Origin: Pecten maximus
Taxonomy: Eukaryota
Length of the DNA stretch: 64,000 nucleotides
Assembly (NCBI RefSeq): GCF_902652985.1
Contig: NC_047028.1
Coordinates: 27,404,001-27,468,000 of the forward strand
Reading direction: 5' to 3'
Position 1 is the first letter of the stretch. Every line of letters begins with the position of its first letter. Below the pieces are notes generated by a model that had not been told where the DNA came from, searched no databases, and saw only the letters and a list, made by a program, of their open reading frames with translations. Shown piece by piece: positions 33,301-61,345 of the stretch. The position numbers were made by a program, and so were the translations under genes.

Positions 33301-34024
33301 TGTACATGGGCCAGTGAAACAAGAAGTCAACAATAGAAGGAATCAAAGCACAAAAATAAGAGGCAGAGCAGCGAAGAAAGTGTCTGGAAGGTTGTTTTGC
33401 TTTAAATGCATATCAACTTGTCTATTGTTTTCCGTCTTACATACAACTTCACTAAATATTATATAATAACCTATACATTATTTAAATGTGAATGACTAAT
33501 TGAAAACAGTTCAGACTGCCTTCAAATAATTCCGGCTAAATGATACTGCCTAAGAAGGATACATTGCAATTATAACATATATTGGATTTCTATCGTTTAT
33601 TATTGTCGCAGGGTATGTGAGAGCACAACTTGTAGTATTCTGCCCAAAATGAAAGCTGTAAAATAAATTCTTGATAGTTTCATCACATGAATCTTCATTG
33701 ATGTGTTAAATAACTTAGACCGTCATTAAAAAAAATAATAACAATACATTTTCCATGGTGATATACAATATAAGAGATATTTAAGCACCCGAAAATAATG
33801 CAGTAAACGACAAAACATGTCTACACCATAGAATCTAGTTTTTGTCAGATCATTGTATTACGTAATAGTATAAGCGTGTCATGTTGTATTTGTCAAGCAG
33901 CCAGTCACTGCACTTCGGCTGTGAGCGTCCATAATCTGCATCCTGTCGACATTGCCTTATCGCCGCATCACGTATACGCTATCTGCTCCGCGCAACAGTG
34001 AAGGTGTGGTTTCTCCCATTCAAC

Positions 34025-34108
34025 ATGGCCAGAGGAATGTCAGCATGCTTGACGGCCATTTTCACATGCACAGTACTTTTGTTAGCTGTCTCTGCCCAAA
34101 CCCTACAG
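34025..34108 (+). CDS. iGluR/IR-family gene, coding exon 1 (signal peptide); model join(34025-34108,48673-48714,50606-50806,51499-51728,52697-52785,53002-53738,54769-54843), ~485 aa
   Basis: CAACATGG Kozak; MARGMSACLTAIFTCTVLLLAVSAQTLQ; phase-0 donor CAG|GTAAGA matches the phase-0 next exon; CpG-richer region just upstream. Confidence 0.75.
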
Positions 34109-34544
34109 GTAAGAGTATTTAGTATTCTCCCGGAGTTCTTTTTTTTTAGATTTGTTAGATAACTTGATCATTCTAGGGACTGGTATCACCTGCCCAGCTT
34201 GTAAAGTTTTGAAATTTTTAATTCTGTTCTATTTACACATAAATATATCATAATATTTCGACGCGTTGCTGATACCATAAATGTGTGGATGATATAAAAT
34301 CACATTTGGGCAAGAAAGGATGGTAAACATCCCAATTTTGGACATAAATTAAGGTTGGAAAAGGCTAAAAATAAGATACCGACTCGATCGCTGCAAAAAG
34401 TTTAGATCAATTTCAATGCATTGTGCACGTACGCTACATTGTGCCCCGACAGCGTAGCTGGGGTTGTCAACCGGCGTGTGTCGTTCTGACGACTTAAGTG
34501 TCACCGATATATGAGAATAAAGTTGCATTTTAAACACGAATAAA

Positions 34545-35075
34545 TATCTACAAATATTGCACTTAAAATAGTCATGTAATATACCAAATGTTTGTTTGGG
34601 CATGTAGTTTCTTAAAATCACCAATGATTTGCTTTGTGGTAAGATGTTGCGTGGCATGATTATAAGTCACACAAATGATCAAACCTTAAAAATAGGTAAT
34701 CTGCTATGCTCACAAGTGACTATAGCACGGGAAAAGAATATTTGTTTGACCGAATTTGACTTTATGTACGTATAAACACATTTTGTATGACCTTGAAATG
34801 CAAATCTGGTCAAACCAATGCTTCTATTTTTGCGTTTTAGACAGTTGTGAGCAAAAAAAGTATGGTTATTTTGTGCAACATATGTGATGTAAATGAGCTA
34901 ATTGTGTCCCCCTGAAACATGCATATTTCGCATGTTTTGTTGAAATTTACAAACAGCTTAACAAATTACATGTACATATCAGCAGCGAGGCCATGGGTTT
35001 GCCATGATACATACTAAATTTTTATCAAGCTGCTTCTGTTAAATCACACCATAGTAGGCATTACAGGCTTGTGCA
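34545..35075 (+). repeat. Second, internally deleted copy of the 28470-29380 repeat
   Basis: Direct sequence similarity. Confidence 0.75.
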
Positions 35076-37699
35076 AGAAAAAGGTGTATAACTACCGTAT
35101 GTCTTTGCGGTAATTAGTGATACCTCGGGTCGGATTAAGAATTTTCAGGGCTTAATACTCGAAGAACTTTGATTTATCTTGAGAGTAATACTGCCGTATA
35201 AATGTTAAGATTATCTCTTTTACTACTTTGAAAAAAAAAGTTTCCAGTAAGTTTATTTTTGACGACCTAAACTTTACTAAAACGAAGGAATGCCCCCTTA
35301 ATGCAGAAATTAGGATTATGATGAAAATGACAATTATTACAAACTCGTTTTCAGGCTTGATTAAACAATATTTACTTGGTAAAAAGTTAAATGGCATCAG
35401 TGCAAATTATGAATTAGTTACACTGCAGATTACGAACATAACCCACCAGGCACAGATTGCCGCGTGGAACGAGTAAGCCTGCGTATTATTTCAAACAAAT
35501 GTACATACTTGACCTAGGTCAGGCGTGGGGAGCACCAGACTGATTCTGTCAATCATAACAAAACATATGTTTCTTTGGAAAGCACAGACTGAATCTGTCA
35601 AGCATAACAAAACCCATGCTTTATTTGCCCCATCAAAGATAAATAGACTGCCAGGGTTGGGGAGCTATGGCGTCAACTAACACAATTAATACTCTCGTTC
35701 AAAATTAAATGTTCATCTTATTTAATTGAATTTTGCTTGTAACAAGCATTTTCATTGGCTGAGAAATTTATCAGTCCACAACGTAGCAAAATGACGTCGC
35801 CGTTTCATAACGTCACTTTTGATTGGCGGATGGAGCAGCGTAATGATTTTTAAGAGAAAAGAGTTCACCAATAAAATGAAATAATTTTTTTTCTGGAATT
35901 ATAAGGATTAACTTAAATACATCTTTTGTGTTTTGGAGTTATTTAAAAAAAAAAAGAATAGTTTCAAATTTAAAAACAAAATAGATTAAAGAAACTTTCC
36001 TGGTATGCTCTCTACATTGTTATGCACTTTGCAAGCCATTCTGTCAGATTTTGGGTCGAATATTGATTATGACTTCCTAAGTGACGTCGATGATTTTAGA
36101 TTATCCTAAGTTCTTGACACGTTTGGATTTGTGTAGCAGACATGTACCCTGTTTTGTTTGGAATCTTTAATGTGACGTTGCCTAAGGAAAGACCAGAACC
36201 AGTACGGGTAACACATAATCCCGATTTAGCCCGCCGGTGAATGAATAAATAAAGTTTATCAATTCAAAAGAAAACTAGAATACCAGAAAACAAACAAACT
36301 GAGCAAAACATGTGTGGAACAAATAGACACAAAACAGATGGTGTGCTCCAGATATGCTTACCATGAATGCAATATAGCTGAATCGGCGGTAGAAAAGGGA
36401 AGCTGACCAGATTTCTCCAGGAAATAATGATAAAAAAAAACGTCTTGTAAGAGAAGGAACATTTAGTGGGCAAGTTGTCCTAGTCATTAATCTATGTTTT
36501 ATTAATATTGCAAACGTTTTGGTCTGCGAGCAATTGACGAAAATCGTGGCTTGTGCGAAGAACAAATTTTGCTTGGAAGGACGAGTTGGGAGCTTTGCAT
36601 TGAATACGAACTTTTCTGGAGGACTCAGTCGAAGCAAAAAATACAAACAAAATGTGCCAAGCATTATTGTGAATCAAGAAATTACATCTACGCTTCTAAT
36701 CTGCTTGAACTCTATCTCGAAAAAATAGGAAATTGGGAGCATTCTTGAGACGTCCGAACCAGGGAAAAGAAATTATATTTTCCAGTCAGGTTATTGGTGT
36801 CAACAAGCACTCGGCTGTTCGAACAATGTAATCCAACGTAACATCGCCAATCATTCTGGGAAAATAACTTGCACCACATCTATTTTCCAAAATTGTGTAT
36901 ATGAGCACAATTGGTTATGCAGCTTGCTGAGTTCAGCAGCCATTGACTACAAGTGGACATCTTCTATTCAGTAAAGATTGATCAACATCCACGAAAAAAA
37001 AAAAACCGCGACATGTGCACTTCTGAGGATATCAATCATGTATTGGCAGCAGACGTTACCAAATATGGCGGTGAAATTGACACCAGAAACGTATATATTT
37101 GTATACATGTATATGTATTTGAGTGAGGCCGAATATTTTTCTTTTTAGATTTCTTAATATCAAGATACCTCATCGAACTTTGTTCTCTGTTCCTCCCCAA
37201 CACCTGAGTTCAAACTGGATCTTGACAGTTGATGCACAGGTCAAAAGAAAGAATCTTGTGTTAGCAGGCGAGAAGAATTCAATCTGAGAACAAGTGTGTA
37301 TTAAATGCAATGTGTTTTATACACATTTGTTAGTTGTAAGTCATTATTCGCCGAATGTATTTGTACCGGACGCGAGAAAAGTGTACAGAGTATTAAGGGA
37401 GCAGTTTGTATTTATGTTCGTTGTTCAGGTATTTGTTTAAAATTTGTATGACGTCATCTGCCTTTTTCCTAATAATCAATTCAATAATCAGATGCATTAA
37501 TTTAAGCAAGACTATAGAATTTCAACAAATGAGCAAAAAATCACACAATGTGTGTCGTAATTTTTTTCTAATTTTTCGATGCAATTCGGTAGGGTGCCCC
37601 GAAAAAGTATTGATTATCTATTGATTTCTGTTTACCAGTAGAATTAGTTGAAGTTAACAGATTTACCTATCGTCGTTATAGAGTTTCAAAAAATATCCA

Positions 37700-38164
37700 T
37701 ACTGAAGGTTTTTTACGTTTATCTTTTGTATGACATTTTTTACAAGGATTACATTTTAGTTGACCATTTTCGAGAAATATGGAAAAAGCTAACCAGCAAT
37801 CCAATAAACGTCCGTTAAAATCAGAATTGGGGTCTATTCCTTTTTCTTCTCTGGCTAAATTCCAACAAATCAATTATTTTCCTAAGGAAAGCCAGGGGTT
37901 TGCAGATTCCAGTTCCTTTTTGTGTTGCTTTTTAGCAGAATCTGTATGCATTTTGATAACCTGCCCGTTGCATTGTGGGACTAATTTGCATAGTCGGACG
38001 ACCCACTTATTATATTTGGGAATTTACCGTATACCTTCATAAATGCACATTTTTTTTCCAGTTTTTAATTCGCGATAATTTGTTAGGTATGTATTAACTC
38101 TGAAATCCGTAAAGAGGCCAATATGTAAACATTTATATAAATATTTCTTTTGGAGCATGGGGCT
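37700..38164. mobile_element. Kolobok-type element end, inserted at the TTAA of a family-A SINE
   Basis: Ends TTTCTTTTGGAGCATGGGGCT|TTAA, followed immediately by the SINE 3' end ATGACCCTGGCTGTTAATAGGATGTTAAAC (38165-38213); interior is an inverted homologue of 27190-27455. Left boundary approximate. Confidence 0.7.
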
Positions 38165-38929
38165 TTAAATGACCCTGGCTGTTAATAGGATGTTAAACTA
38201 AATAAAACAAACCGTAACACTAACATCACTGTTATGAGTTAATGTTAGAAAAGGGCATGTCGACATTCGGTACTAGACATTTTAGCTGTGTGGGTTTGAG
38301 TGTGTAACGAAAACACTTCGGTGTAATGTTGGCCAACATCCTCATATGCCAAGCCTACGCGTCTTGTCTCTGTAATTCAAGTGCTTTCGAGCAGACATAA
38401 GAGTAAGGTGTTGTATAAACCGGGAAGAATCTTAGATATTGACCTCGAGCTTCATCCTCAGTTAATATTTGATTCTACCAGGTCGGTACATTGCATGACA
38501 CCATATCAACCTCAACAAAGTTCCATAGTTGATAATTATGTTCCGATGAAGTATTATGATTTATAATGACTGCCTTTTTGTTGTTCAAAAACTGAATTAT
38601 CTATACTACTTTTTAAGTGGCAAACTTAATTCTGCTTCTTAACTTTAACTTTTATTTTCAATAAATAGTGTTGATTTTTTTCAACCATAAGTTTCTCCAT
38701 GCTTTAGATAGAGTCTAATTGATTAAGTAATTTTTCCTTGAATAAGTCTGGCCGGCGAATTGATGCTTTACATCAATATTATCTAGTTTGAATTGAGAGC
38801 CATTTGGAAACGGAAACATTTCAAATTCGAAACAGATCACAAAATGTCGATAACAATACATGCAATATGAATGAATGGCTACAGTTCAAAATCGACACGA
38901 ATAACAATTAAATGTCGACAAGAATACAT

Positions 38930-39180
38930 TCTACAGTGACATCTGACTTTACCGACCACAGACTTTAACGATAATATCCAACAAAACGACAACATACTCC
39001 TTTGTCATCGCCAACACTGACTTTACTCACCACTGACTTTAATGACATCATGTAATATCCGACCATATCCACTAGAACAACAACATTCTCCACTGTCATT
39101 GCCGACACTGACTTTACTGACCACTGACTTCACCGACATCTGACGCATTGCCGCGGCCCTATACAGTGTCGGTAAAGTCA
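38930..39180. repeat. Degenerate CACTGACTTTACCGAC repeats with a terminal inverted copy
   Basis: Six direct copies of CTGACTTTA-like motifs, then GTCGGTAAAGTCAG at 39168-39181. Confidence 0.65.
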
Positions 39181-39271
39181 GGTTTCATATATAAATCCAT
39201 GGTAACCAAGATAGTTAGACTAGCCGGAAATAGCACGGAGGACGGTAAAAGTATGTCCAGCAAAAACGGTA

Positions 39272-39730
39272 CTGTACGTGTACATATTTAGCGAACTCAT
39301 ATTTTAGCTCTCCGAGGGTATGTAGACTTATTAGCGCACTCTTGAATTCGCGCAATCGTCAATATTTTTTCTTAGATTAGCGGCAATACACTTTTCTGTA
39401 ACAAATACATGCCATCCAAACTTTGAATTCCCTTCAGACTCACATATAACGCTTAGCGAAACAATTGGAGCAATGTCGGAGTATATAGATCATGTTATCA
39501 TTACGTACGTCAAAAACGTCCAAGATAAGCTGCCGCTGAATGCATCGTCACAGCCTGCTTTATGTATATTTGACCTATATAAAGCTCAATGGGTGAAATA
39601 TCATATAGCAATTTGTCGTGTATGCACAATGATAGGTCGGAGAAATTTTAGCGCTGCACTGAATTGGCGCAATGACTTGAGCGCGAAAGGCGCTAATATT
39701 ACAATACCGCTAAAATAAGTACACGTACAG
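39272..39730 (+). mobile_element. TA-flanked MITE retaining a pogo-like DDE_1 transposase fragment
   Basis: TA|CTGTACGTGTAC ... GTACACGTACAG|TA; interior translates CHPNFEFPSDSHITLSE/NWSN...MSEYIDHVIITYV...QPALCIFDLYKAQ. Confidence 0.8.
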
Positions 39731-40800
39731 TATACCAAGGTGGGGAAAAGTAATCATGAAATGGATCCTAAAACTGAAACAAATCGGAATCCAAAAACAA
39801 CATTTAACCACTCGAACACTCTCTGTGATGTTATTGTTGTAAGGAACGACAAAAAGTGAAAAAATATATATTTCAAAAATCACCTTCACCTTCATGTCTT
39901 CATATTTAGAAGTTTGTCTTAGGACGAAGACCGATGTTCGTCGCAAAATAAAAAGTTTTCTTTAAGATTACATAAGGTATATCTCTTGGACGCTTCTAGA
40001 ACATATATGCACATCAAACGCAAAGTACCGTTGGGATATATGGTTTTGTGGTCATCGGTCAAGGATGGGGGGGGGGTCTAACTTAATCATTATGCTTGAT
40101 GTTTAGATAAAACCAACAAAATATATGTAGAATAGTGACTCTGTATATTCACATCATATACGCTAAGTTCTTAAACAGATGAGAGCTTCGTGGTCATCTT
40201 CAAGGGCCAAAGGGAGTTCAGATTTGCTATTATGACAAAACAATACATATGTTTGGTGTAATTTCAAGTCATTTACTACATATAAGCTCACGATCACATG
40301 TTATCCAATTGACAGTTTGTGACAAAGGTCACAAAGTATAAGACGAAGTCTTCTTCAACTCTAATAATGCTACAATAAGAAGGTAATTGCGTAACGTCTT
40401 CTCTCCCTCTCTGACCTTGGCCTTCAGCTCTTAATCGCATTGTGGTACATATGTCTTAGGCTGTCATGAGTTCCTTCCCTAGTCCTGGGTATCTGTCGTT
40501 TGTTAAACGTCCTGCTATGTCCTCAGTTATATCGAAACTGCTGTAAATCTAGTCTGGCCAAATAATGTACAAAGTAAGTCTGTCTAGTCTAAACTCTAGC
40601 CTACACTTCAGCTGATGCCTAATAGACGCCTTCCGTGACTGGCAACATTTTATGGCTAGCCCTACTTGACCAGGGCTGTCAAATTATTCCCGATCTTTTT
40701 TTATTTAGCTCCAGACATCCTGGTACTAATGGTGCAAAACAATTGGCCTGCAATTTGGCCATAACTGATGATAGATGCCGTGTATCAGAAATTATCCATA

Positions 40801-41460
40801 CAACATTGTGAACAAAACTCATCAGTAAATTCAGTCACATGAATTAACATGACTCATATGAAAAGCTTGCAATATTACTACGCAGTAAATAACGTTTTGT
40901 CCCTATGTCTAGTTCCACTACATAGTACAGTACCCTGATAATTCTATAATACATACAGATGTTTAAACATACACTATGCAATAATGTCATTGTTTCATTT
41001 GAAATACATGTTTATATATGTAATTAGTGAGCAATCTGTTACCTTACGCCGTGCTCTATGAACTTCATAACACTCTGTAACAAAGCCATTTTACCACAAA
41101 AAATATACTAAAACTTTTACCTAGAATAATAACTAACGGTCAACTTAGTATGGTATAGTTATATAGTGTAATATATTCAAATATTACGATAACTGTCAGG
41201 ACTATAGAGTCAATAAGGGTAACAGATGTCCATTTCTTAGTAAAAGACAATGTGACACGTATATTGCACAGCGCCATTCATATATCTTAGTACCTACTTT
41301 CAGACAAGGTAAGCACACTCATTTCATATTAGCCACATAATTACTTCCCGTCAAGGTAAAAACGCTCATTTCTTATTTACGTCTTACTTCCGGTCAAGGT
41401 AAACACATTCATTTCATCTTTATGACTTACTTCCGGTCAAGTTAAAATACTCATTTCATG
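40801..41460 (+). repeat. Left copy of ~660-bp direct duplication flanking the LINE
   Basis: Matches 43611-44270 at constant offset 2810 with 4 substitutions seen by eye. Confidence 0.95.
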
Positions 41461-43611
41461 TTTTTTTTTTTTTTTTTTTTAGTTCCAGACAAACATATAC
41501 ATCGATACTCTCTTAATTATGTACATGTAATCAATTTTTATGAATACTCCTACATTTTTGGTGTATTTTAAATCTATTATAATCTACTATTACATTCTTA
41601 ATTATTGGGCAGTATAGTGTATGTAGAATTGAAAACAATCAACCAATGAATATATTGCCTGGAGCTAATTGAAAAATGGGATTGGGGGATAGTTTGGATA
41701 AAAAGTAGAAGCTGATTTTGAAAAGGAAATACAAAGATAAGAGAGAAAGGAAACATAAAAGGAAGAAGAGAAGAGGGAACGAGATTTCCGACGAAAGCAA
41801 AGGCAATTTCTGAAAGGGTGACAAAAAAATAACTGACTATTGCTAATAAAAACATTTAATGGAAAAGAAACGAGTCCAACAAAAACACAAGCAAATTGAA
41901 AAAATATAAAAATTAATTACGTTGGTAAATTGAAATCTATTTCATAATGAAAGACACTACCTTAATGTAATGGTTATATTTATTTTCTAAAAGCTGAATG
42001 GTAAGCACTGAAATCCTCAATAAAAGTAGCTTCCTTGTCACATTTTTTTGCTAAGTATCTCTCGATGTTATATGAAGTTTTAAGGTTACTAATTAGAGTG
42101 GGTAAGTACAGAGCTTTACCTAAACACTTTTGACAATAAATATAGTGCTTCATATTTAGTATTATAATATTTTCTGCTCTGTTATTTTGGTGTGGGTTTT
42201 GTGACATTTTACCAAAAATGAAATCTTTTTTACATACATTAAATGTCTCATTACAAGTAGCTTGCAACCAAATTTGGAAAGCCATAATTAAATTTTGGAC
42301 TTTATTACATTCCCAAAGTACATGCTGTATTGTTTCTTTTTCTATGAAGCAGAAATTACACAAATCAGACTGAACAAAATGAATCTTTTTCAAATAAGTG
42401 TTTGTAGCTAAGACATGATGATTAATTCTAAATTGCATCCATTGTAGTTTTGAATTTTTATTTGTGTCAAAAGGCAATCTGTATATTTGTTTCCATTCCT
42501 CAATAGGTATATTTCCAAATATGGTGTCCCACTTTGCTTGGCCTGTAGGCAATACATTATTTTTATTCAATACATTATACATATCTCTTGTACCTTTTTT
42601 ACTTTTAATAACAATATCAATATACAGTGGTATCAATGGTAATGTAAGTGTTTTTTCAAAATTCCATCCTAATCGTTTGACTGCCAATATAATACCATTA
42701 TAATCAAGGAAGTTAGTATTTAAATTAAAAGCTTCATTAAATTCATTCTGTTGAAGAAAGCTGCCATCTTCTTTAAGTAAATCATTTATAAAAATCACAC
42801 CTTTATCAAACCATTGCTTATAATATACAGTATTATTACCTATTTTTATTAAATCATTATACCAAATTGGTAGAGATAATATTTGTTCTGGCATAAATAT
42901 TTCAATTTTCCCTCTCAATATATTCCACGCATTAAAAACATCAATCCAAAATTTGTTATGAAGTACATTTTTGATATTATATTCAATATATCTATTTCCT
43001 AACGTTAAAAACTTATTTCTATTAATTTTTGTAAAAAGAAGTGTCTGCCAATTTGAACTTTTAAGACAAATATTTCTAATCCATGTTGATTTTAAGGCCA
43101 TTTCAAAATGTTGGATATTAACCATTTTCAAGCCACCTTCTTCATAACATTTCACAATAATATCTCCTTTGACCTTTGCTATTGGACTTCCCCAAAGGTA
43201 TTCATTGAACATATTTTGAATCTCTTTCATAGTAGATTGGTTAGGTGATGGTAATCCTATAAATAAGTGTGTAAGTATTGGTAGTAGCAGTGTTTTTATT
43301 ACGGTTACTCTACCTATCGGAGTTATATATCGTCTATTCCACTGTTTAATTAGTGCCTTTAATTTAGCAATTTTTTCTTTGAAGTTAGACTGAACTATTT
43401 TACTGAGGTCAACATTGAAGTTAATTCCTAAAAGATTAAAATGTGTTAAACCCCATGATAGAGCAAGATTATTGACTAATTTCTCTGAACTGTATTTTTT
43501 ACTTCCTATCCATATAACTTGTGTTTTTGTGTAGTTTAATTTGAGTCCCGATATTTCCCAGAAGTAATTAAGTTCTTTTAAAGCATACCTAAGTGATGTT
43601 TCAGTACCATC
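41461..43611 (-). mobile_element. 5'-truncated L1/Tx1-clade LINE (RT C-terminal part, zf-RVT region, 3' UTR, poly-A)
   Basis: Stop-free ~545-codon frame (41980-43611) with ISGLKLNYTKT, LLGINF, GRVTVIKTLLLP, EEGGLKM, QFRINHHVLATN, CNFCFIEKETIQHVLWEC; T20 at 41461-41480. Confidence 0.95.
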
Positions 43612-44270
43612 AACATCGTGAACAAATCTCATCAGTAAATTCAGTCACATGAATTAACATGACTCATATGAAAAGCTTGCAATATTACTACGCAGTAAAT
43701 AACGTTTTGTCCCTATGTCTAGTTCCACTACATAGTACAGTACCCTGATAATTCTATAATACATACAGATGTTTATACATACACTATGCAATAATGTCAT
43801 TGTTTCATTTGAAATACATGTTTATATATGTAATTAGTGAGCAATCTGTTACCTTACGCCGTGCTCTATGAACTTCATAACACTCTGTAACAAAGCCATT
43901 TTACCACAAAAAATATACTAAAACTTTTACCTAGAATAATAACTAACGGTCAACTTAGCATGGTATAGTTATATAGTGTAATATATTCAAATATTACGAT
44001 AACTGTCAGGACTATAGAGTCAATAAGGGTAACAGATGTCCATTTCTTAGTAAAAGACAATGTGACACGTATATTGCACAGCGCCATTCATATATCTTAG
44101 TACCTACTTTCAGACAAGGTAAGCACACTCATTTCATATTAGCCACATAATTACTTCCCGTCAAGGTAAAAACGCTCATTTCTTATTTACGTCTTACTTC
44201 CGGTCAAGGTAAACACATTCATTTCATCTTTATGACTTACTTCCGGTCAAGTTAAAATACTCATTTCATG
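43611..44270 (+). repeat. Right copy of ~660-bp direct duplication flanking the LINE
   Basis: See 40801-41460. Confidence 0.95.
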
Positions 44271-44635
44271 TTAACGATTTACTTCCGGTCAAGGTAAACA
44301 CGTTCATTTTATCTGGATGACTTACTTCCGGTCAAGTCAAAATACTCATTTCATATTTAGGATTAACGTCCGATCAAGGTAAATACTCATTATATATATA
44401 TGACGTACTTTTGGTCAAGGTAGATACACTCATTTCATATTTACGATTTATTTCCGGTCAAGGGGAATACACTTTTTTCATTTTAACGACTGACTTCCGG
44501 TCAATGTAAATGCACTAATTTGATATATAAAACTTACTTCCGGTCAAGGAAAATAAACTCATTTCGTATTTACGACTTAATTCCGGTCAAGGTGAATACA
44601 CTCATTTCATATTTACAGCTTGCTTCTAGTCAAGT
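44103..44635. repeat. ~43-bp minisatellite, ~13 units (first 4 duplicated at 41293-41460)
   Basis: TTACTTCCGGTCAAGGTAAACACACTCATTTCATATTTACGAC-like unit. Confidence 0.95.
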
Positions 44636-47600
44636 ATCCACTTAAAAAAAAAAATAACCTACAAATATCCCAACAATTTAAAGGCAACTACTTCCTATTG
44701 TAACATGAGTAATCCACAGTCATTGAATCGCTTCCAATGTCTTACGCTAAAAGTGTATAATGTTCGACGCGAGGACACAGTTTAATATCAGGAATTCCGT
44801 AACTTAAAACAACACCAAGATAGTTTAAAGTCCATCCAGGGTCGTTTTTAACACTTGTAAACACAGAACAGCTTGTCAAGTAACAACACTGTTCAGATGT
44901 CATCTAGGATTCGTTTTCAATTACATTGTTCACAGTTCAACAGGGGTCAATGAATTACAACAACGTCAACATTGTTTAAAGAACATCAAGTATATTTCCA
45001 TCTCAGTATAGCCGTATAATTTAAACGTTAAACATTTATCATTTCGATACGCAATCTTTATGAACATAACAAAAAAGTTTTGTTTTCATTTCATAACAAC
45101 AGATCTTCACAATATTATATCAACTTTGTTATCTTTATAACATTAAGGATAGATTCTTAATAGTTTCATTTCGTCATGTCACACGTTTTAAATCTCTTTG
45201 AGAAACTTACGGATGTAGGCATATGAATCATGTATTATTACGTGTTCACTTCCTGCTTGTGACAGCTATAATGGACTAATAACTTATTCTATTGTGGACA
45301 TCCCTTTAAATTCTTTAACAGGTTGATCCAACACGCTAGTCTCGGCGAATTTGCCAGCTGCAGGACATTCTCCTAAAAAAAATACAAAGTTCTGCATTTC
45401 TTCTTTTAATATACCGATCTCTCTTATAAATAGCTCTGCTAGTTGTCTCTCGTGCTTGAAAGATCGTCAAGGTCAGATGTGCTATGCTGATGTAGCTATC
45501 ATCTGTTGGTGAGATCTTCTTTGCTTTTATTCTATGTCCTCCTTCGGTGCTATTTCGCTTGCAGACAATCCAAATCCAAATTTCCTTATTGCACTAACCC
45601 TTCACTTCTGCAAATCACTTATATTTCGCGTTGGATTTATTTTCGCGTTTATACGCGAGGAGAGTCAATCGCAAATTCCAATCCTTCTGAACTATTTGTT
45701 CGAAACTAACATCTACGAAGTTTGCGATTAAATCTTATAAATTATGTATGTTGGTGTTAGAGCTATTTGGGTATTATATTTTGCATCTGTTACGTTGTAA
45801 AAACAGGGAAATAATTGTGTTTGTATGTCTTAGGCGAGCGATGGCCACCATCTTTAGAACTCATTTCAAATTGAAGTGTGCTCCATTTTACAATATCGTA
45901 CCTATTTAGTACAACTGGTACGAACCCGATAAAGGAAAATATAGTATGTGTAGGAGAGTGAAACCCACAGTAGAGTCGGACGCTTCCGATACTCTGATTT
46001 ATCACAAATTGCGTCTTGGCTTAATAACCTGTTTTCGCCTTTGCTTCAATTTTGTAAGATTCTAATTTTATTTTTGTTTTTGATTCATCCGAAAACATTG
46101 AGGAGGAGATAATGTAAATGTACACACTAGCCTATATCTAATAACGGTATTGATATACGTACAATGGTACTCATACCACAGACATGTGTGGTAGATGTCA
46201 TTGTCTTGTAAAATGTCCATAGGTCAGTATCAGTGTCAAAAAGGACTGGTATATTTCCGTCAAGGCGACTCTTGCTACACACACTCGACGATACACAATT
46301 TAGATTTTTGTTGACGAAAGTTTAGCAAATGGATTTTACAATCTAATGTGACGCCAACATATGTACTGGTATGATGATAAACAGGATGACATATACTTCG
46401 GCATATAATGACGATAATTTTGTTAATAGTTTACAAAGTATGTGTCGGATATCGGGCACAGAAGGCAAATGAGTATACACAGCTCCCTCCATCATTGAAA
46501 ATGATGCATTTAATGCTTATTGTTATTTATTCTAACTATCAGGAAACAGGTTACTATAAATGTACATATTTTAACGGTAGTCTTATTTTAGTGTTTTTCG
46601 CGCTGCAGAAGCATTCCGCTAAATTGTGATTTTGCTAAGTGTAGTTTATTTACCTTGGTTTCTATGGCGATTACTGTTGGTGTGCTAATTCATCATTCCG
46701 TTAATCTTTTGTATCAGGGGTTTCCTGTTTGACGAATGTCGACAGTCCTCTTTTTGATGGACACCAACTCGCCCTGAAGGGCACCTGACAGTCCGTCCTG
46801 ACAACTCTGGTCATCAGTTCTTTAAATGTATTCCTAGGCGATTTTAACATGTTTGATGTGAATATATTACAAACAATGCATAGAGGGTGGACTCAAATGG
46901 ACATATTTATGTGCATAATGCAATTTTCTCGACTCTTAAACATTCAATAGTATCCGATTATCCGATTATCCCCATTTGTGTACATTCGTCACACCCAAGT
47001 GGACCTTTTCAACACATTCCGAATCACTGCACACTGATTGTTGTTTTGTCAGTGATATGTTTCCCATATTAACATATACATCATACATCATACATGTTAC
47101 CTATATCATGTTTTTGTCGATCTCAATCTGATACATTCCAAGAGTAATTTTGTACAAGACACACATTGTCAAGATATGTTACCAAGTAAGGAATACAGTA
47201 AACCCAAATATAATCAAGTCAATTACATCATACGGCTGGTTCGTGGAAACAACCATCGTTGTCAACATTGCAGGTTGAAGAAGCAGGAATGATACCATTC
47301 AGAAATGTTCGTGCACATGATGTATTGAAAGTACTTGAATTGATCAGTACATGTATTAACATCTCATCCATGACAGAATATTTCGATATTTTTCACTCGT
47401 GCTTTGCACTCGTGAAAATATCGATAGTCATACTCGTAAAATATGTTATATTCAACTAGAAACCATTTAATATCTTCTTTATATTTTCAACTTAAACAGT
47501 TGATTTCACAACGACGTCAAGTTTACAAATCTGTGTAAAAACGTGACATGCAGCTATGTCACAGCAAATATCAAGGCTTAATTTCTACCAGAGTGTCTAT

Positions 47601-47885
47601 CCCCTTCAATCCCAAAGGAATGTACAAAAGACACACAAGTCATTAGCTCATTTTCGCCTAAATTGATAGAACAGTACATCATACAGCTGTTTCGACCTTC
47701 AAGGACTCGTCAGTAATACCAACTGTATAACGTTTTGATATCTAGGAGGGGATGGATAAAACTATTATAGGTAAAAATACTATTGTATGGTGAGGCCCCA
47801 TTATTAAAGGAATTTCACCCTAACATTTTCGAAAATATAGTCATGCTAAAACATTATAATCTGCGTACCTAAAGATATTACGTTT

Positions 47886-48005
47886 CCGGACTCTGTCTGT
47901 TGTATGATCCGGACTTTGTCTGTTCTGTAATCCAGTCTCTGTCTATTCTGTAATCCGGTCTCTGCCTATTCTGTAATCCGGTCTCTGTCTTTTCTGTGAC
48001 CTGGT
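47886..48005. repeat. 23-bp tandem repeat x5
   Basis: CCGGTCTCTGTCTATTCTGTAAT-like unit. Confidence 0.85.
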
Positions 48006-48672
48006 CCTATTCATTCTTTACATTGTTAGGTTTCGTTCTGGTCCAGTGTGTAGCGATGGCTACAGTCTTAATAGCTCTACAGGGACATTATCAATTGACC
48101 CTGAAATGCAAGGCAGACACGTTCAGCCAAACACCTCAACTCCTTCCTGGCATAATAGCTGGTGCAAGCGCTTTACATCATTATTTCGGTTACAATTACA
48201 GATTTGAGATTTCCTCTCGAGAACCCGCGTGTGGCGGAATCATGGGAATACTCTTATGAGAAAATAGATAGAGGATTATAAAAAGATTTTCCACCTCCAG
48301 GCCTACTGATATTTACTCGAAATCCAGAGTAATTCTTCTGAGTGGGAATATACAATGTCTGACCTATATAAGCGGAAAATGAAAATGAGATGAACTTGGC
48401 AACAGAGTTGTAAGCTTGGGGTTCCTGAACTGAGTTAAGATGAGATATTGGTTACGTACAGCAATTCTGCATATAAATGTGACTTGTAAACATTTGCATG
48501 AAGATAAACCTATACCTGAAAATATAGAATAATATAATAACATCTTAGACATTTCCCTCGCTTAACCACAGATCTCAGCGTTTTGAAATGCTAAAGGTCA
48601 AATTTGTTATTTCTACATTTTGGTTTTATCTTACTACATGTATAATAGGTTTTTTTTCTGTTTTTTTCACAG

Positions 48673-48714
48673 CCGGGTTCTTCCATACCAACATATACCG
48701 TCACAACAATACTG
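48673..48714 (+). CDS. iGluR/IR-family gene, exon 2 (start of S1)
   Basis: Polypyrimidine-CAG acceptor, PGSSIPTYTVTTIL, GTAAGT donor; joins to give VTTIL-HEPY, like the canonical VTTILEEPY. Confidence 0.85.
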
Positions 48715-49749
48715 GTAAGTAAATATATACCATATCAACAACTTATATAATTACAAGTACAATGTGTATATCATCTGTAGATATACATCATATAACGAAA
48801 CGAAAAACCACAGCTTAATTGCTATACGTCTCAGTAACGAAAGCCAGTGTTGTGTAATATTGCCTTAAGTGTTCTCAGTGTGTCATAGAGCTACGAAGTT
48901 AAGTAGATATTCGCCGTAACAATCTCATGAACTCGGCCTATCCCAGTTCAGGCGTAGTCTGATTCCAAATTAGGACCGAATTGAGTGGATGAATAGCGGT
49001 TGGTTTCAGGTTCAACAAGCCTGGTAATTTGAAAGTCCTTTCATGCAATTAATGACATGCAAAACTATCCTATGATATCATCATATATCAGTAGAATTGT
49101 AGAATATAGTTTACAAAAAGGTACTTAGTTCTGAAAACAGTGTTGTTGTAAATGTATATTGAATCTTAAAATAACTTTTTTTAACATGTGCTCTATTCTC
49201 CATTGCTCTTGTATATGGAATAAAACTACTTTTTATACCTAACAAGCATATGGATATCCTCCTATATTTAAACATAACAAGTTGGTACTATTCATGCACA
49301 ATATAGTGATTTATGTTATAGTGTCTTAAAGAAACACGAGGGTACGTTTCATTGCACTTACTATATAGATCATCATCTATAAGCAGATTATAGATCGGTA
49401 GCATATTTAATTTTTTGTCTGTTTTTTTATATTTTTGTTGTTGTTTTTTTGTTGTTGTTTTTGTTTGTTTTTGTTTTTGTTTTTTTTTTGCTTTGCATGT
49501 GAATTTATTATTGTTTTTTTATTTCTTTATTACTTCTTGACATTTTTATTTCGATTCTCACATAAAGTATTCACATATTACAGAAAGAAATAAAGACAAC
49601 TTTCACACACACACATGCATACATAAACTGTATATACATATATATATATCTTGAATACAAAGTAGGTAGCTTAGCTATAGCTAATAGGTGAATAAAACAA
49701 CTTTCATAGAAGGCAGCATAATCAGTATGAAATTATGTGTCAGAAGTGA

Positions 49750-50340
49750 TGACAAAAATGCATGAAACAGTTCTTTTCTGTCTATTGATCAAAAAGATTA
49801 CGAAAAAGCCTCCATTTGTGAGTGAATAAAGTGTACCTACCATCTATGGTTGATGTTCATTTTCCCATATTGTAATAGTCCAGTTTAGTAAGTAAATAGT
49901 AAGTATTCTCTTTACACATTCAAATATGAGTTGTTCCCCTTTACCACACTGTTTATCAATATATTGTTTAATAATGGGTATTATAAGGTTATGTTTTCCA
50001 AACAATATTGGCTTTTTTGACAGATTTAAATATAAAGAGGTTTTTTTCAAATATCCAATTTTCAAGTAATATCCAAAGCCTCTCAACGTATTCACAAACA
50101 CAAAACATGTGTAAAAGTGTTTCAATTTATTCTTTATAAAAGGTACAAGAATGATCATCATATATATTTATTTTAGTTAGAAGGCATTTGTTGTCAATAC
50201 TTTATGTATAACTCTGTACTGGAGCGATCTCATCGAGACATCATTTGTTGTTCTAAACACTGTTATTTGAATTTTCAATTTCACTAGTTCTGCATGTGAA
50301 TATTGTGAACTATTATTGAATCAATGGGACCCCCATTTCA
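49750..50340 (-). mobile_element. Old degenerate L1/Tx1 3' fragment
   Basis: Minus strand reads FRTTNDVSMRSLQYRVIHKVLTTNAF*...SCTFYKE*IETLLHMFCVCEYVERLW (zf-RVT remnant); T/GTT-rich tract at 49410-49490 may be its tail. Confidence 0.75.
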
Positions 50341-50605
50341 TTTTCGTAGGGCGCTTGTTGAACCTTAAGGAGTATTGCCGACTGAAATGACCGACACCAT
50401 CGAACAAAAAAGACAAAAACATAATTAAAAATATTTTATAACAAATAACGTATTTGTCCAAGCAAAGAAGTATAATAAAATACCGAAAGTGTTAAGTTAA
50501 ATGAATTAATATAATTTTGGGGTTTACGAAAAGAGTTTTAGTGTTTGATTATTATTTTCCTTCTGGATAAATAAAGCACTAACATAATTAAAATGTTATT
50601 CACAG

Positions 50606-50806
50606 CACGAGCCCTACATAATGATGAACCCCAAATCTACGGACAATTCCACTAAATACATTGGCATCGTTAAGGATATTCTCGACAGGATCGGTCAGAT
50701 ACTCGATGTCAACTTTGAGTATATCCATGTGGGGGATGACGATTTCGGTCATAGACACCGCGTCTTCGGAAACTGGAGTGGCATGGTGGGTCAATTGATT
50801 CGTAAA
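50606..50806 (+). CDS. iGluR/IR-family gene, exon 3 (S1)
   Basis: CAG acceptor; HEPYIMM...YIGIVKDILDRIG...FG...NWSGMVGQLIRK; GTAAGT donor, phase 0. Confidence 0.93.
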
Positions 50807-51498
50807 GTAAGTAGCAAACATACTCCTCCGTAAAGTAGGTTTTATGACCTTAATAACATTTGCATCAAGTCGTTCTTGTAATAGAAAGTTTCAAGCACTT
50901 TTTTAAGCAGATGAAAATTCCTTTGGAATGGAGCTCTTCGTAAGGTAGGTACCCCGTTCTTCAGTAAGAAGGTGTTACGTCCTTCGTTAAGTAAGTATAA
51001 GTTTTGCATGATTGGCATCAAGTCCCTCGTTAAGTAAGTATTAAGTCATGCGTAAAGCAGGTATCGCGTTCTTTAGTAAGAGGGTGTCAAGTTCTTCGTA
51101 AAGTGTTTTTGTAAGGTAGGTATAAAAACGTTTTCAATATTGTAATCAGTTGAGTAATTTCTTCAAACCTGTTGTCTGTTTATATTTTTCGTATGAAATG
51201 TACCAGTCTATACCTTCTCATTGTCCTACTGACCTGGCCACATTCAACAACAGCATATATAGAACTAAAACCTTAGTTGCTCAACTGGTTAAGTATTTGT
51301 CCGATAGAATAAACGGTTAGTTTTACTTGAAAAAGAGTGATTAACATAAAAAGAGGGTTGACTTCATTGACAAGGTTTGGAAACATTACTATTGGAAGAG
51401 ATTGCATTGATAACGAGTATGATTACAATAGTGGGAGAAACTTTAGTCCACATTGCGCATGACGTCATTTATGACAGATAATTCCACTTTTCTAATAG

Positions 51499-51728
51499 GA
51501 AGCTGACATCGCAGCGTCACTGAGGGTAACATCTCAACGGGCCAAGGATATTCACTACTCACAGACGTTTGCAACAAGTGGTGTGAGCATTTTACTAAAG
51601 AAGCCAAAGATCCATTCCCAAGCACACAACACCGCCACACTTCCATTCCAACCATTCACTGTTGGAATATGGGTGTCCATCATCGTGGCATTCGTTATTG
51701 TATCACTGGTATTGTACGCTATTGGCAG
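51499..51728 (+). CDS. iGluR/IR-family gene, exon 4 (S1 end, M1)
   Basis: EADIAASLRVTSQRAKDIHYSQTFATSGVSILLKKP...PFQPFTVGIWVSIIVAFVIVSLVLYAIGR; TAG acceptor, GTAGGT donor (phase 2). Confidence 0.93.
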
Positions 51729-51869
51729 GTAGGTTCACTTTGTTCAGAAACGCTTCGGTATTGTAATAATAATAATAAGAATCTTTTACAAGTAAACACA
51801 TAAATGACATGTTGATTAAGATGTGGTAGGCAATCTCGTCATGATAGAAGCTAGAATCATTCCTTATAG

Positions 51870-52080
51870 AGGCCACGGTGGCGAAGTGGTTAAGGTGTCC
51901 CAACACTGTATCACTAGCCCTCGACCTCCTGGTCGCGAGTTCGAGATACACGTGGCAGTTGCCTGATAATGACCGTAGATCTGTGTTTTTAATCAGGGTA
52001 CTCCGGATTTCCACCACCTCCAAAACCTGGCACATCCTTAATGACCCTGGCAGTTAATATGACGTTAAACAAAGAAAAAC
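51870..52080 (+). mobile_element. tRNA-derived SINE, family A (intronic)
   Basis: A-box GGTGGCGAAGTGGTTAAGG, B-box GAGTTCGAGA, core GGGTACTCCGG, tail GACGTTAAAC + A-rich. Confidence 0.9.
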
Positions 52081-52696
52081 TAAAGCAATCCCGTCCTTAC
52101 TTGTTATTTATGCCGTTGTATTGTCATACAATTATATATATTACATGGAAAATGCAATGAACGGTCTTGCTATAGTATTAAAAGTCATGATAAATGACAA
52201 TGATTGTATTGAAACTAATAAATATTACATCCTTAATAACGTATAGTTCTGTAAATTATTAAGATTCGTGTGCGATTAATTTTCGCGTTAATACGCTAGG
52301 AAAGTCAATCGCGAATTCAAAACCAATTATTTGTGCGAAAATAAAACCTGCATGGATGGAGGCCAAGCTATCAGTTACCAATATAGGAGTATTGTAGAGT
52401 CTATGATTATAAAAGTTCATCATTCTCGAAGTTTAAGTCATTTCTAGATCAACGTTCGCGAAATAATTATTCGCGAATATATCTGAAAAGTTCGGGAAAT
52501 AAAGTATTCGCGAAATCTGAGTCATTTAAGAACTTCAGTAATGGACATCTTAATTGTACTCAGATATCGTGAGTATTCTCTTTTGCCAATCGTGCATTCT
52601 CGGCTGTTACTCTGATAGATCAGAACGCCAGTCCTCTAACTATAAAAGACTATCGCTTAAGGTTAATTTGATAACTTATATGCTACAAATTTGTAG

Positions 52697-52785
52697 GCTT
52701 AATCCGGAGGAGCGAGTTACTGAACGTGGGGAAAATAACATTGCTACCGCCTTCTTCATGACCTTCAGCATGCTGTCATTACAAG
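52697..52785 (+). CDS. iGluR/IR-family gene, exon 5 (M2 pore loop)
   Basis: RLNPEE...NIATAFFMTFSMLSLQG; intron phases 2 and 1 fit the neighbours. Confidence 0.92.
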
Positions 52786-53001
52786 GTTAGTAGTAAAGAA
52801 TTCACATTTTTTTTATTATTATCATTAAAAAATTCGCATATTAGCCTCGCAGAAGACTTCTATGGAGCGCAGATTCATTATTACTTCTCATTTAGCAGTA
52901 AAACTTTAATATAATCTTTGTGGTATTTACTTGTTATCTTATTATTTCGAATTAGTTTTCAACTTAAAATGATCTATAAAAGCTGTATATCTTGATTTCA
53001 G

Positions 53002-53738
53002 GATCTCGTTTGACTCCTACCTCACATGCTGGCCGCACCTTGGTGTGTTTCTGGTGGATTTTTGTCTTGGTTACGCTCATTTTGTATGCTTCCAGTCTCA
53101 CGTCCATTTTGTTTTTGAAGTCCCCGGATGTTGAAAATCCACTTCCATTTTACACCTTTGAACAAATGACAAAGCAATCTAAAATAAAGTACGGCACCGC
53201 CAAATCTGGTTCTGCGAAAAGCTACTTCAGGAAGTCCTCTGGAGCGCTCGAACGACAAATATACAAGCTTTGGAAAAGTAATCCAGACCTTTGGGTGCCG
53301 TCGATTGAGGAAGGGGTTGCCAGGGTGAAAAATGGTAACGGGGATTACGCTCTGGTCTTGGATAGCGAATTCGCATATTACACGGCGGCAAAAACCTGTG
53401 GCTTGGCTGTGACAGGCAAATTGTATTTGGAACGGTCATACGCCTTCGCCTGTGGACCAGACACCGATATTTGTCGTCAGCTCGATCATGCTATTCTCGA
53501 TATGAAGGAAAACGGTGAGCTACTTATGATCGCAGACAAATGGATGAGTGGACCTTGTGGCAGCTATGCCGACCTATCGACGCCTGAACGCTACATCCCG
53601 CCGACGTTGGATGCTTATCTAGACGTGAAACACATGGATATAACACGATTCACGTTGCCACTAGCCAGCATATTGTGTGGAGTGATAATAAGCATTCTGG
53701 TAGCTGCAATAGAGAAATTCCGGTCCAAGTCCAAAGGG
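53002..53738 (+). CDS. iGluR/IR-family gene, exon 6 (M3, S2, M4)
   Basis: PTSHAGRTLVCFWWIFVLVTLILYASSLTSIL, QSKIKYGT, SIEEGVARVKNG, YALVLDS, DHAILDMKENGELLMIADKW, M4; GGG|GTAAGT donor at 53738/53739. Confidence 0.95.
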
Positions 53739-54398
53739 GTAAGTCGTCAAGCACGCGTAACTTTACCTCAAGAGGCATGAGTTTGTGTAAAGTTCTAATA
53801 TTACAAAAAATATAATCGTAAAATTTTACCGTTTTTTTCTTAATGTACTCATTTGAATTTTCTGGTGAATGACGTACTGTTATATATGGCGACATTTTAT
53901 CTACTAAACTTCGGGTTGTCGCAGTTTCTGAAGGCGACAAAGCGACAAGGCGACAAGGATTTTATTTCTTTACTCAAGACACCATCATAAAACAAATTTA
54001 CATTTTCATCTCGTCTAAATTCATTAAAGAGTGCATATCAAGTATCTGTTTGTTTACATGTTTGAGGCTTTATTCCAATAACCTCATCACAATAGAATAT
54101 CCCTGTTACTATGACAATGGAAAAATTAGGTATTTACTTACAACACATAATTGGGGGAAACAGAATAAGGAAAGATTGTGCAAACCCGGTCCCGGATGTG
54201 GTAGGTGTGTAGGAATATATCAAGGAATCATGTATTTTGTTCGGCGGACATCAATTTACTCACAAATGATGCCGAGCAAAATTCGATCACTGCTGTTGAA
54301 ATTAATGAATTGTTATAATAAAAAAAAACACATACAATGTATTTGAAAAAAATTAGATTTTTCTCTATGAGAAGAATGATTGTCTGTTAATTTTACCT

Positions 54399-54472
54399 TA
54401 GCCCGAGTTTTCTCTGGCCCTGTCACCATGTCTGGTGTAGGTTGGTGACAGGGCCAGAGAAAACTCGGGCTA
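54399..54472. mobile_element. 74-bp perfect hairpin, AcademH-like mini-element
   Basis: 30-bp perfect arms TAGCCCGAGTTTTCTCTGGCCCTGTCACCA, 14-nt loop, TAG..CTA termini; 9-bp flanks ATTTTACCT/ATAGTACCT (7/9 match). Confidence 0.7.
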
Positions 54473-54768
54473 ATAGTACCTCTGACTGCAGAAAACGTGA
54501 TTTTGTTTTGAAAAATAGTTCCCTAGTTACAAAATGGAATCATCTCACCTTACGTTCGAGGTTATGTGACTGACGTCACATTCGCGATGTTCCGGGTAGT
54601 GAACAGATCCAAAATTTAATTTAAGCTGCAAAGGAGTACTAGTAAAGAAGCCCTCACAAACCTTTTGTTACGAGGCACACGTGTTCTTACAGTAAACATG
54701 TTTTATATATACACACATGTATTGTATTTCTATATATTTATATCTTGTATTTTGTCCTTGTGTTGTAG

Positions 54769-54843
54769 ATTGCCCGGGGAGCACGTATTCCTGCACAGGA
54801 AGATAAACAAGGCTTCAGCAACAGCCCAGACATCGATATGTAG
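54769..54843 (+). CDS. iGluR/IR-family gene, terminal exon 7
   Basis: Pyrimidine-rich TAG acceptor at 54767-54768; phase-0 IARGARIPAQEDKQGFSNSPDIDM*. Confidence 0.65.
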   Translation: MARGARIPAQEDKQGFSNSPDIDM

Positions 54844-55579
54844 TGGGCAACCGGGAATCCTCAAAAATGGAACTCTTCGATAACTTCAGTTTTGACAGTA
54901 TGCAGCTCTCAAACGTCTCCAGTGAACTGTAAACGTCAAAAATATAAAACGAATAGGTGCCTTTTATATGTATATCTATATTTCACAGTCACGAAACATC
55001 TAAATATGGTTATAATATGGACACTTTAGTGTATAACCATCAAACTGAAGCAAGGCTAATACTTATTCTTGTTTGAAATTGATTACGTTTTCAACCTTTT
55101 AAATAATGTAGAAAACAAAGGTAACTTAGGTTCGGCATGTTTAAACAGATTTATTATGCTGAAGAAGATACACAGTATAGCTTGGTTTGACTGCTCGCTT
55201 CGAGTCTCCTTTCACGGCCGAATGCTGTGATCAGAGGAGGCTGGATTTACCCTGCCTTTCATGGGTCTAAGTCTTGTTTGTACGCCATGCTCGAATGTTC
55301 CACGGTTTGCTGAGCAGCACTTCTGTTGTCAGATGCCGCTGCAACAAACTCTTCCAATCTTAAGATGGCTGACCTTTACGCGTAACTTGTGTCGCCATAT
55401 TTGTGATTTGATGACGATGCTATAAGCACCTCCTAGCCTATTGCTGCCGTACATTGCATACCCACAGCGTTAATAGGAGTACAAAAGAGCAGCATGAGTA
55501 TGAGGCGCCGTTTTACTATCTAATCAGTATTTTACATCAAGAATTGGACTTTCTAACATAAAAATAGAGAGATTTCGGA

Positions 55580-59898: not shown

Positions 59899-61345
59899 GA
59901 CCGTGGTGGCCGACTGGTTAATGTGTCCCGACACTTTATCACTAGCCCTCCACCTCTGGTTGCGAGTTCCAAACCCACATGGGGCAGTTGTCTGGTACTG
60001 ACCGTAGGTCGGTGCTTTTTCACCGGGTACTCCGGCTTTCCTCCTCCTCAACAAGAGCTGTTGGAGAACAGCATAGCTCGTCTCGCAAATGTTTGTCAAT
60101 AAATAATTAAAATATATTAATTGGAATGGTTTCGCAAATTGCATTAATAATATTTATATTGTTTACTTGATCAGATTATGCTTTGTGAATTCATGCAATT
60201 TTCAAAACCATACCAATTTATATATATATAAATTATTTATTGACAAACATTTGGGAGACAAGCTATGCTATTGTAGATTAAATGAATATATTAAATACAA
60301 ATGTAATTGCTTTTGGACATATTTCTTCATTTTTTTGACAAAATATTATCCTAATGAGAGTTGTCTCCCTTGAAAAATGTGGACCGGTATAAATATGTCT
60401 ATTGTGAGCATTTTCACATTGTTTTATTTTCAGTTTCACCCCAAGAATGGATAGTGTAACTCCATAGGGACTCTTTTACCAAATATCAGCACCCTAGTAC
60501 AATCATAAGGTGATGTGTTAAATAGCTTTCAACATTTGCACAAAAATTAAAAAAAAAAAATGTGTTTTTTCCCCAAAAAAATATTTCAGTTGAACTCGGG
60601 CAAGGGATAGTTTAACCCCCACAGGGAACCTAATACCATGTATTACTATTCCTTTCAACACTCACAATATAAACTTAACACAAAGTCCAAAGATTTAAAA
60701 ACAAAAACAAAAAAACAGATTTAAAAAGAAAAATCCAATTTTTTTTTTAAAGTTTTACTCCAGGAAGGGATTGTCTTACTCCATAGGGACTCTATTGCCA
60801 AATATCAGCACCCTAGTACAATTATAAAGTGATGTATTAAAACCTCTTAACACTTAACCAAAAACTTGACGCAGAAATATTCTAAGTCCAAAAATTTGAA
60901 AATTCTGGTTTTTTCCCAAAAAAATCTTTTAGTTTAACTCTGGCAGGGGATAGTCTAACCCCAGAGGGACTCTATTGCCAATTATCAGCACCCTAGTACA
61001 ATTATGAAGTGATGTATTAATACCTTTCAACACTTGCACCAAAAACTAAACGCAAACATTTTCTAAGTCCAAAAATTTTTCAAAAATCTGTTTTTTTTCC
61101 AAAATATCTTTTAGTTTAACTCCGGCAGGGGATAGTTTGACCCCCACAGGGACCATATTACCATAAATTACTATGCCTTTCAACACTTGCACCAAAAATT
61201 TAACATTTGGAAAACCAACGCCGACGCCGTAGTGACGACATAAGCTCTCACTCTTCTTCGAAGAGACGAGCTAAAAACCTGGCACGTCCTTAAATGACCT
61301 TGGCTGTTAATAAGACGTTAAACAAATTAAACCAAACCAAACCAA
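59899..61345 (+). mobile_element. Family-A SINE split into 59899-60051 and 61274-61345 by a HINE insertion
   Basis: Head and core stop at CTTTCCTCCTCCTCA and resume at AAAACCTGGCACGTCCTTAAATGACC...GACGTTAAAC(AAACC)n. Confidence 0.9.
60052..61275 (-). mobile_element. Complete non-autonomous Helentron (HINE) with internal tandem repeats
   Basis: Subterminal IRs TAGCTCGTCTC (60074-60084) and GAGACGAGCTA (61263-61273); hairpins GCTGTT-GGAG-AACAGC and CTCTTC..GAAGAG; inserted in an A/T run with no TSD; ~180-bp internal repeats. Confidence 0.9.

Follow-up and report, generated by a model that had tools for sequence, protein, structure and literature searches.

Here we describe a glutamate-receptor-type gene in a 64,000-nucleotide stretch of the Pecten maximus genome (RefSeq assembly GCF_902652985.1, contig NC_047028.1, positions 27,404,001 to 27,468,000 of the forward strand), which we call the window and within which all positions are numbered. 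The gene, at 34025 to 54843, is real, spliced, intact and expressed, and its product is a 485-amino-acid (aa) homologue of the ionotropic glutamate receptors (iGluRs) and lacks the whole amino-terminal domain (ATD). On balance, we lean towards viewing it as a subunit of the molluscan ionotropic receptor (IR) family IR-A that likely descended from the AMPA/kainate side of the iGluRs and not from IR25a, and that would act as a putative extrasynaptic subunit of a cation channel gated by amino acids. The gene already carries an annotation and the family a name, and loss of the ATD is neither new nor scallop-specific.

Gene structure and transcripts

Seven exons, all with GT..AG borders, yield an open frame of 485 aa, and the product matches P0001, the database entry for the RefSeq 'glutamate receptor U1-like' of Pecten maximus, at 100% identity. 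The features of the gene are as follows.

33908 to 34024 (+): 5′ untranslated region (UTR; minimum length), containing a TAA in frame at 33932-33934; defined by the start of the X1 contig at 33908
34025 to 34108 (+): coding part of exon 1, 84 nt, with the ATG, a signal peptide (residues 1-24, cleavage inferred) and a phase-0 donor; from the frame, RNA and a predicted helix
34109 to 48672 (+): intron 1, 14,564 nt, without ATD exons, in which repeats and a LINE-like fragment lie; absent from the spliced contigs X1, X5 and X7
48673 to 48714 (+): exon 2, a micro-exon of 42 nt and phase 0/0 whose end falls at the first strand of S1; from the frame and RNA
50606 to 50806 (+): exon 3, first part of S1; from PF10613 and RNA
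51499 to 51728 (+): exon 4, remaining S1 (R118 = GluA2 480, R123 = 485) and M1; no differing letter in 8 of 8 RNA contigs
52697 to 52785 (+): exon 5, M1-M2 loop and pore helix with Leu at the Q/R site; from the alignment and structure model
53002 to 53738 (+): exon 6, M3 (2 of 9 gate-motif residues conserved), S2 (A287 = 655, D336 = 705) and M4; from PF00060
54769 to 54843 (+): coding part of exon 7, a 24-residue cytoplasmic tail and the stop; joint 53738-54769 in 4 of 4 runs
54844 to 55578 (+): 3′ UTR, at least this long; the X17 contig extends to 55578

Eight of the 19 RNA runs containing the gene were examined, and their contigs cover all six splice junctions. The joint from 34108 to 48673, which skips 14,564 nt between GT and AG, was present in three of the four runs covering intron 1 (X1, X5 and X7, from three studies); the contig of the fourth, X11, begins just 15 letters before exon 3, while X17 and X19 hold just 176 and 200 letters upstream of that exon. 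In the X1 contig, letters 1-197 correspond to 33908-34104, the next 45 letters to exon 2 and a shared border, and exon 3 starts at letter 243; therefore, no sequence lies between exons 1, 2 and 3. The in-frame TAA falls within this contig, 31 codons upstream of the ATG, and 33908-34024 contains no ATG. Since RNA joins 34108 directly to 48673 and a stop lies in frame upstream of the ATG, the ATD is absent from the transcript.

The original prediction, made from the letters of the DNA, had proposed the 485-aa ATD-less receptor, with a signal-peptide exon joined to a 42-nt phase 0/0 exon across 34108-48673 and no ATD-like exons in intron 1. All of this was borne out, and the RNA joints revealed neither additional coding exons between 34108 and 48673 nor an exon 1 derived from another gene, the latter being ruled out by the joints between exons 1 and 2. 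A splice-site scan of intron 1 for hidden ATD exons returned nine weak candidates, none of which was used in RNA or resembled an ATD. Read-through into intron 6, with a stop at 53780, was likewise ruled out, as exon 7 was used in 4 of 4 runs. Two substitutions were seen in RNA: 50770 A>T, which is silent and occurs in all eight runs, and 52737 A>G (N200D), in seven of eight, which gives the same residue as in two orthologues. Judged from sequence, the latter is more likely an allele than RNA editing.

Absence of the ATD and protein architecture

Pfam matched PF10613 and PF00060 in the 485-aa protein, with S1 beginning at residue 35, and the resulting S1-M1-M2-M3-S2-M4 layout places it in the iGluR superfamily. 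ANF_receptor (PF01094), by which canonical AMPA, kainate and NMDA receptors are recognized, was not matched by Pfam in the protein. In a genome-wide search, PF01094 gave 71 matches, including upstream of several canonical iGluR genes, and none in the window. A profile built from 25 ATD-bearing relatives had no match in the window at E<=10; the same profile strongly matched 2 of 10 short control loci. An AlphaFold model (mean predicted local distance difference test score, pLDDT, 85.5) begins with a signal helix at residues 2-24 and continues at residue 35 with the first strand of S1; the PDB entries that match it best are ligand-binding domain-transmembrane domain (LBD-TMD) structures of GluA2. 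From hydropathy and the predicted helix, the signal peptide would be cleaved after about A24. The protein also departs from the canonical AMPA/kainate feature set, with 2 of 9 gate residues, Leu at the Q/R site and R480/A655/D705 vs. SYTANLAAF, Q/R and T480/T655/E705 (GluA2 numbering).

A member of the IR-A family

Five further P. maximus genes share the large M2-M4 exon, indicating six paralogues in the genome, and searches with PF01094 and the ATD profile found no ATD match near any of the other five. Orthologues of 486 aa with 64-66% identity occur in two other scallops; RefSeq applies the automatic name 'glutamate receptor U1-like' to the identical protein of P. maximus and to 1:1 orthologues in Argopecten irradians and Mizuhopecten yessoensis. 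Word-index searches with the exon and with three orthologues gave only three and four proteins, and the family emerged through phmmer and a 44-row profile. The best phmmer matches were mostly proteins of 450-520 aa with a hydrophobic start. Among 30 matches looked up by name were members from scallops, oyster, freshwater mussel, chiton, abalone, limpet, Babylonia, Biomphalaria and cuttlefish, and also from Lingula, Tubulanus, Lineus, Owenia, two hemichordates and a frog. Among 26 relatives analyzed with Pfam, ANF_receptor was absent from 17 short proteins and present in nine long ones. Judging from the annelid, nemertean and brachiopod members, ATD loss in the family predates molluscs.

Two members, P0031 and P0057, match by eye BarIR-A.1 and BarIR-A.3 of Babylonia, respectively, in Table S3 of PMC12837371, and the family is therefore the published molluscan IR-A clade. 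The P. maximus protein and P0031 fall in one 15-row molluscan clade with support of 100/99 (33-row tree; see below), and its 485 aa lie within the range of the 19 gastropod IR-A proteins in Table 2 of the same paper, all of which are 436-540 aa. The name IR-A is used in both PMC11682238 and PMC12837371; in their available text, these papers treat the family as IRs and do not single out complete loss of the ATD. The P. maximus protein also differs in its changed pocket. Our literature search, which largely did not extend to subscription papers, found no description of IR-A as ATD-less AMPA/kainate relatives. The naming itself reportedly goes back to Andouche et al. in 2021.

The micro-exon has 42-nt counterparts in two paralogues and a 30-nt candidate in a third, with a signal-peptide exon upstream of it in two paralogues. 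In two canonical genes (the exon was found in 2 of 12 loci examined), phase 0/0 exons of 114 and 99 nt end at the same S1 strand. The 42-nt exon is therefore likely a trimmed remnant of an ancestral exon that linked the ATD to S1.

Outside IR-A, seven short iGluRs with a hydrophobic start (P0024, P0096, P0032, P0121, P0068, P0095 and P0077) sit near kainate, AMPA or delta-like rows and possibly represent more independent ATD losses. P0009 (Lineus, 989 aa) and P0022 each carry two iGluR cores in tandem, as a natural concatemer or a fused gene model.

Phylogenetic placement

Trees were built from the S1-M4 core, excluding signal peptides, in an alignment of 400 columns and 91 rows, of which 77 were stored proteins and 14 were Pecten genes assembled by chaining exons. 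Quick trees covered all 91 rows; the careful trees had 52 rows (LG+G4) and 38 rows (mixture model), and a further set had 33 rows. The label of the Pecten IR25a agrees by eye with Lottia IR25a (PMC2924276), other IR labels were given by resemblance, and three database sequences labeled 'GluA' or unnamed were placed among kainate rows.

The gene falls in an ATD-less spiralian clade with support of 97/90 in the 52-row tree and 96/89 in the 38-row tree, and in the same place in the 91-row quick trees. P0035, a long branch that bears an ATD, falls within this clade in both quick trees. IR-A lies on the AMPA/kainate side, set apart from IR25a, and the branch separating it from the IR25 and IR-like rows has support of 98/98 (52 rows) and 96/88 (38 rows). 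With broad sampling, monophyly of IR-A and the five IR rows was rejected under two models by the approximately unbiased (AU) test (p = 6.7e-6 and p = 2.7e-4). Intron positions were considered as evidence on IR ancestry and set aside: the shared introns also occur in NMDA or canonical genes and are therefore uninformative. The trees suggest that IR-A likely descended from the AMPA/kainate side, not from IR25a, and has likely been misfiled among insect-type smell receptors. Thus the 'IR-like' character named in the original prediction holds for the published label and probably for the role in tissues, whereas descent from IR25a is unsupported by the trees.

The position beside AMPA/kainate receptors is shared with the Phi class (PMC6307864) and with 'bilaterian AKDF group II' (PMC12226733). 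Group II spans molluscs, annelids, cephalochordates and Ptychodera flava, and the data set of PMC12226733 includes an oyster member of the present family. Some Phi proteins, like the P. maximus protein, conserve SYTANLAAF weakly; unlike it, most have an ATD of more than 300 residues (10 of 14 rows; PMC6307864).

Vertebrate kainate-binding proteins (KBPs; U1, 'probable glutamate receptor') also lack the ATD and are 460-490 aa long; a Q/R-site Leu and a degenerate gate are further features in common with the P. maximus protein, to which their identity is 24-27%. In the 38-row mixture tree, a 19-row clade (98/91) takes in KBPs and IR-A along with short receptors from hemichordates and four rows that bear an ATD, so KBPs possibly belong to the same larger branch. 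The link depends on sampling: it had no resolution in the 52-row tree and support of 89-90 in the 91-row quick trees. P0198, omitted from the 38-row set, attracted the KBPs in the 52-row tree and in one of the quick trees, where their place is weak or open. An exclusive clade of IR-A and KBPs was not recovered in the trees, and neither it (p = 0.076) nor one of IR-A and hemichordates (p = 0.073) was rejected. A single ATD-less clade of IR-A, KBPs and hemichordate short receptors was rejected (p = 0.005), and the 38-row tree requires four changes of ATD state. ATD loss in IR-A was therefore likely separate from that in vertebrate KBPs. An 'independently stripped-down' molluscan receptor of KBP size, as originally proposed, is supported in this respect; the loss was not a one-off, given six paralogues and an origin before molluscs.

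More tentatively, it is possible that IR-A proteins are not IRs and that, with the hemichordate short receptors, Phi-like ATD-bearing proteins and KBPs, they make up one ancient sister branch of the AMPA/kainate receptors. Such a branch would have lost the ATD at least three times and would supply IR25a-independent amino-acid sensors in tentacles and gut.

Ligand pocket, gate and proposed function

In GluA2 numbering, the P. maximus protein keeps E402, R485, G653, S654 and Y732 and has F450, S478, R480, A655 and D705. T480, T655 and E705 are retained in the two other scallop orthologues of full length, which gives the P. maximus changes T480R, T655A and E705D; the exons concerned show no differing letter at these sites in 8 of 8 RNA contigs. 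By the rule of PMC12226733, the scallop orthologues would be glutamate-type and the P. maximus protein mixed. Across 42 relatives, R123, C348 and C401 are invariant. The Q/R site is Leu, as in KBPs. The paralogue at G000:C14:4.18 Mb has the orthologues P0007 and P0197, which have no recognizable pore motif and carry S-F-A at 653-655 and His at 732, so this IR-A lineage is likely non-conducting or strongly retuned.

We propose that the protein would form a membrane tetramer. Its clamshell would bind an amino acid, in this species one other than glutamate, with R485 and D705 holding the backbone, and a cation pore would open. T655A and T480R may retune the P. maximus protein away from glutamate, while the scallop orthologues keep the glutamate-type set. 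Because the gate keeps two of nine residues, partner subunits are probably needed for opening, most simply other IR-A paralogues in a heteromer. The ATD serves to anchor receptors to synaptic organizers, and without it such anchoring would not occur. The protein likely acts in chemosensory epithelia and gut. In gastropods, IR-A genes show enrichment in the antenna and lip (PMC12837371), and such genes were found in the tentacles of jingle shells, which are bivalves (PMC11682238). A table of the P. maximus digestive gland reduces ten ionotropic transcripts to three proteins, none responding to domoate injection (PMC8150855); two of the three names, 'U1-like' and 'glutamate receptor 3-like', match P0001 and its paralogue P0178. 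IR25a was possibly missed by the naming in this table, which is therefore uninformative on co-receptors.

Weighing the alternatives

Several points weigh against an amino-acid-gated channel subunit from the AMPA/kainate side. The IR sample consisted of five roughly assembled Pecten genes, in a tree set without arthropod IRs or named Phi sequences. In two published trees, IR-A falls within an IR clade that is well supported (PMC12837371; PMC11682238), and monophyly of IR-A and IRs was not rejected (p = 0.16) in 33 mostly molluscan rows. The excess of pocket changes in P. maximus (4 of 10 sites vs. 41 of 276, p = 0.048) is borderline and post hoc, and ligand choice is hard to predict from pocket residues (PMC13648236). 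The gate is degenerate, with fewer than four of the nine residues of SYTANLAAF kept in 7 of 27 family rows; this, together with the pore of P0007 and P0197, implies that some IR-A members may not conduct. No functional data on any IR-A protein were found in the literature. The digestive-gland link to P0001 is by name, not accession, and the tissue of the RNA runs is unstated.

It seems unlikely to us that the protein is a true IR, that is, a putative tuning subunit descended from IR25a and needing IR25a as a co-receptor, as the label IR-A implies. In the published trees, IR-A clusters with IR25 and with IR-B to IR-D; IR-A genes are expressed in sensory organs (PMC12837371), and a changed pocket and loss of the ATD are IR traits. 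Insect tuning IRs, whose co-receptors are IR25a and IR8a, likewise have a reduced or missing ATD and peripheral expression (PMC2924276). Against this, broader sampling rejected the grouping under both models. In the 33 rows, chosen without hemichordates, KBPs or short receptors from outside the molluscs, IR-A and IRs remain apart in the best tree (88/84), and since rejection is lost there, sampling may explain why IR-A falls within IRs in mollusc-centred trees (PMC12837371; PMC11682238). Close relatives of IR-A include hemichordate proteins, yet IRs are held to be absent from deuterostomes (PMC2924276; PMC11682238), and one sequence from Aplysia, similar to IR-A by eye, was classified as GluRK3 and not among the IRs (PMC2924276). 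Moreover, insect tuning IRs keep about 200 N-terminal residues (PMC2924276), vs. about 10 before S1 in the P. maximus protein.

We are equally doubtful that the protein is a putative non-conducting, KBP-like binding or modulatory subunit, which would bind amino acids or kainoids such as domoate and modulate or buffer other receptors. KBPs bind kainate and domoate without homomeric current, and size, architecture, Leu at the Q/R site and the degenerate gate are common to both groups. The 19-row clade unites them, and the top feature matches in Atlas were chordate U1/KBP clusters. However, that link varies with sampling, identity to KBPs is merely 24-27%, T655A would weaken glutamate-type binding in P. 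maximus, and domoate injection left 'U1-like' transcripts without differential expression (PMC8150855).

A decaying duplicate under relaxed selection, with pocket changes devoid of function, is very improbable: long branches would fit it, as would three pocket changes and the deletion of one residue that P. maximus alone shows, but the frame is open and spliced in 8 of 8 runs examined, R123, C348 and C401 are retained, and P. maximus departs from the state common to the other two scallops at 41 of 276 sites, vs. 54 of 289 and 47 of 282 for theirs.

Other features of the window

Inside intron 1, 41980-43644 on the minus strand holds a 554-codon open frame with a zf-RVT match, a LINE-like fragment of which related copies are transcribed. 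An interspersed repeat of very high depth, SINE-like by eye, lies at about 51880-52070, 38165-38210 and 59900-60000; ARAGORN called no tRNA for it. Elsewhere, a single 528-codon frame at 21002-22588 (-) encodes many leucine-rich repeats (LRRs) and an LRRCT domain and is likely a membrane LRR gene, and a 403-codon frame at 2809-4020 (+) has APD1-4 N and M domains and is E3-ligase-like.

Significance

An oyster survey listed just iGluRs of 794-1224 aa (PMC10642201), and a major iGluR phylogeny dropped sequences with fewer than four of the nine gate residues (PMC6307864), a filter that the P. maximus protein fails. The family is therefore easy to miss. The re-classification of IR-A, the repeated loss of the ATD and the species-specific pocket are worth following. 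Natural receptors consisting only of LBD and TMD would show tetramer assembly without an ATD. Domoate is retained in king scallops; given the pocket changes specific to this species, binding is worth following up. If IR-A and KBPs are related as proposed, vertebrate KBPs would gain testable invertebrate relatives, a handle on these orphan receptors. If IR-A arose from the AMPA/kainate side, molluscan 'IR' counts mix two origins, and iGluRs evolved chemosensory use, and lost the ATD, at least twice; should the ancient sister branch be real, it would mark a second, convergent origin of chemosensory iGluRs.

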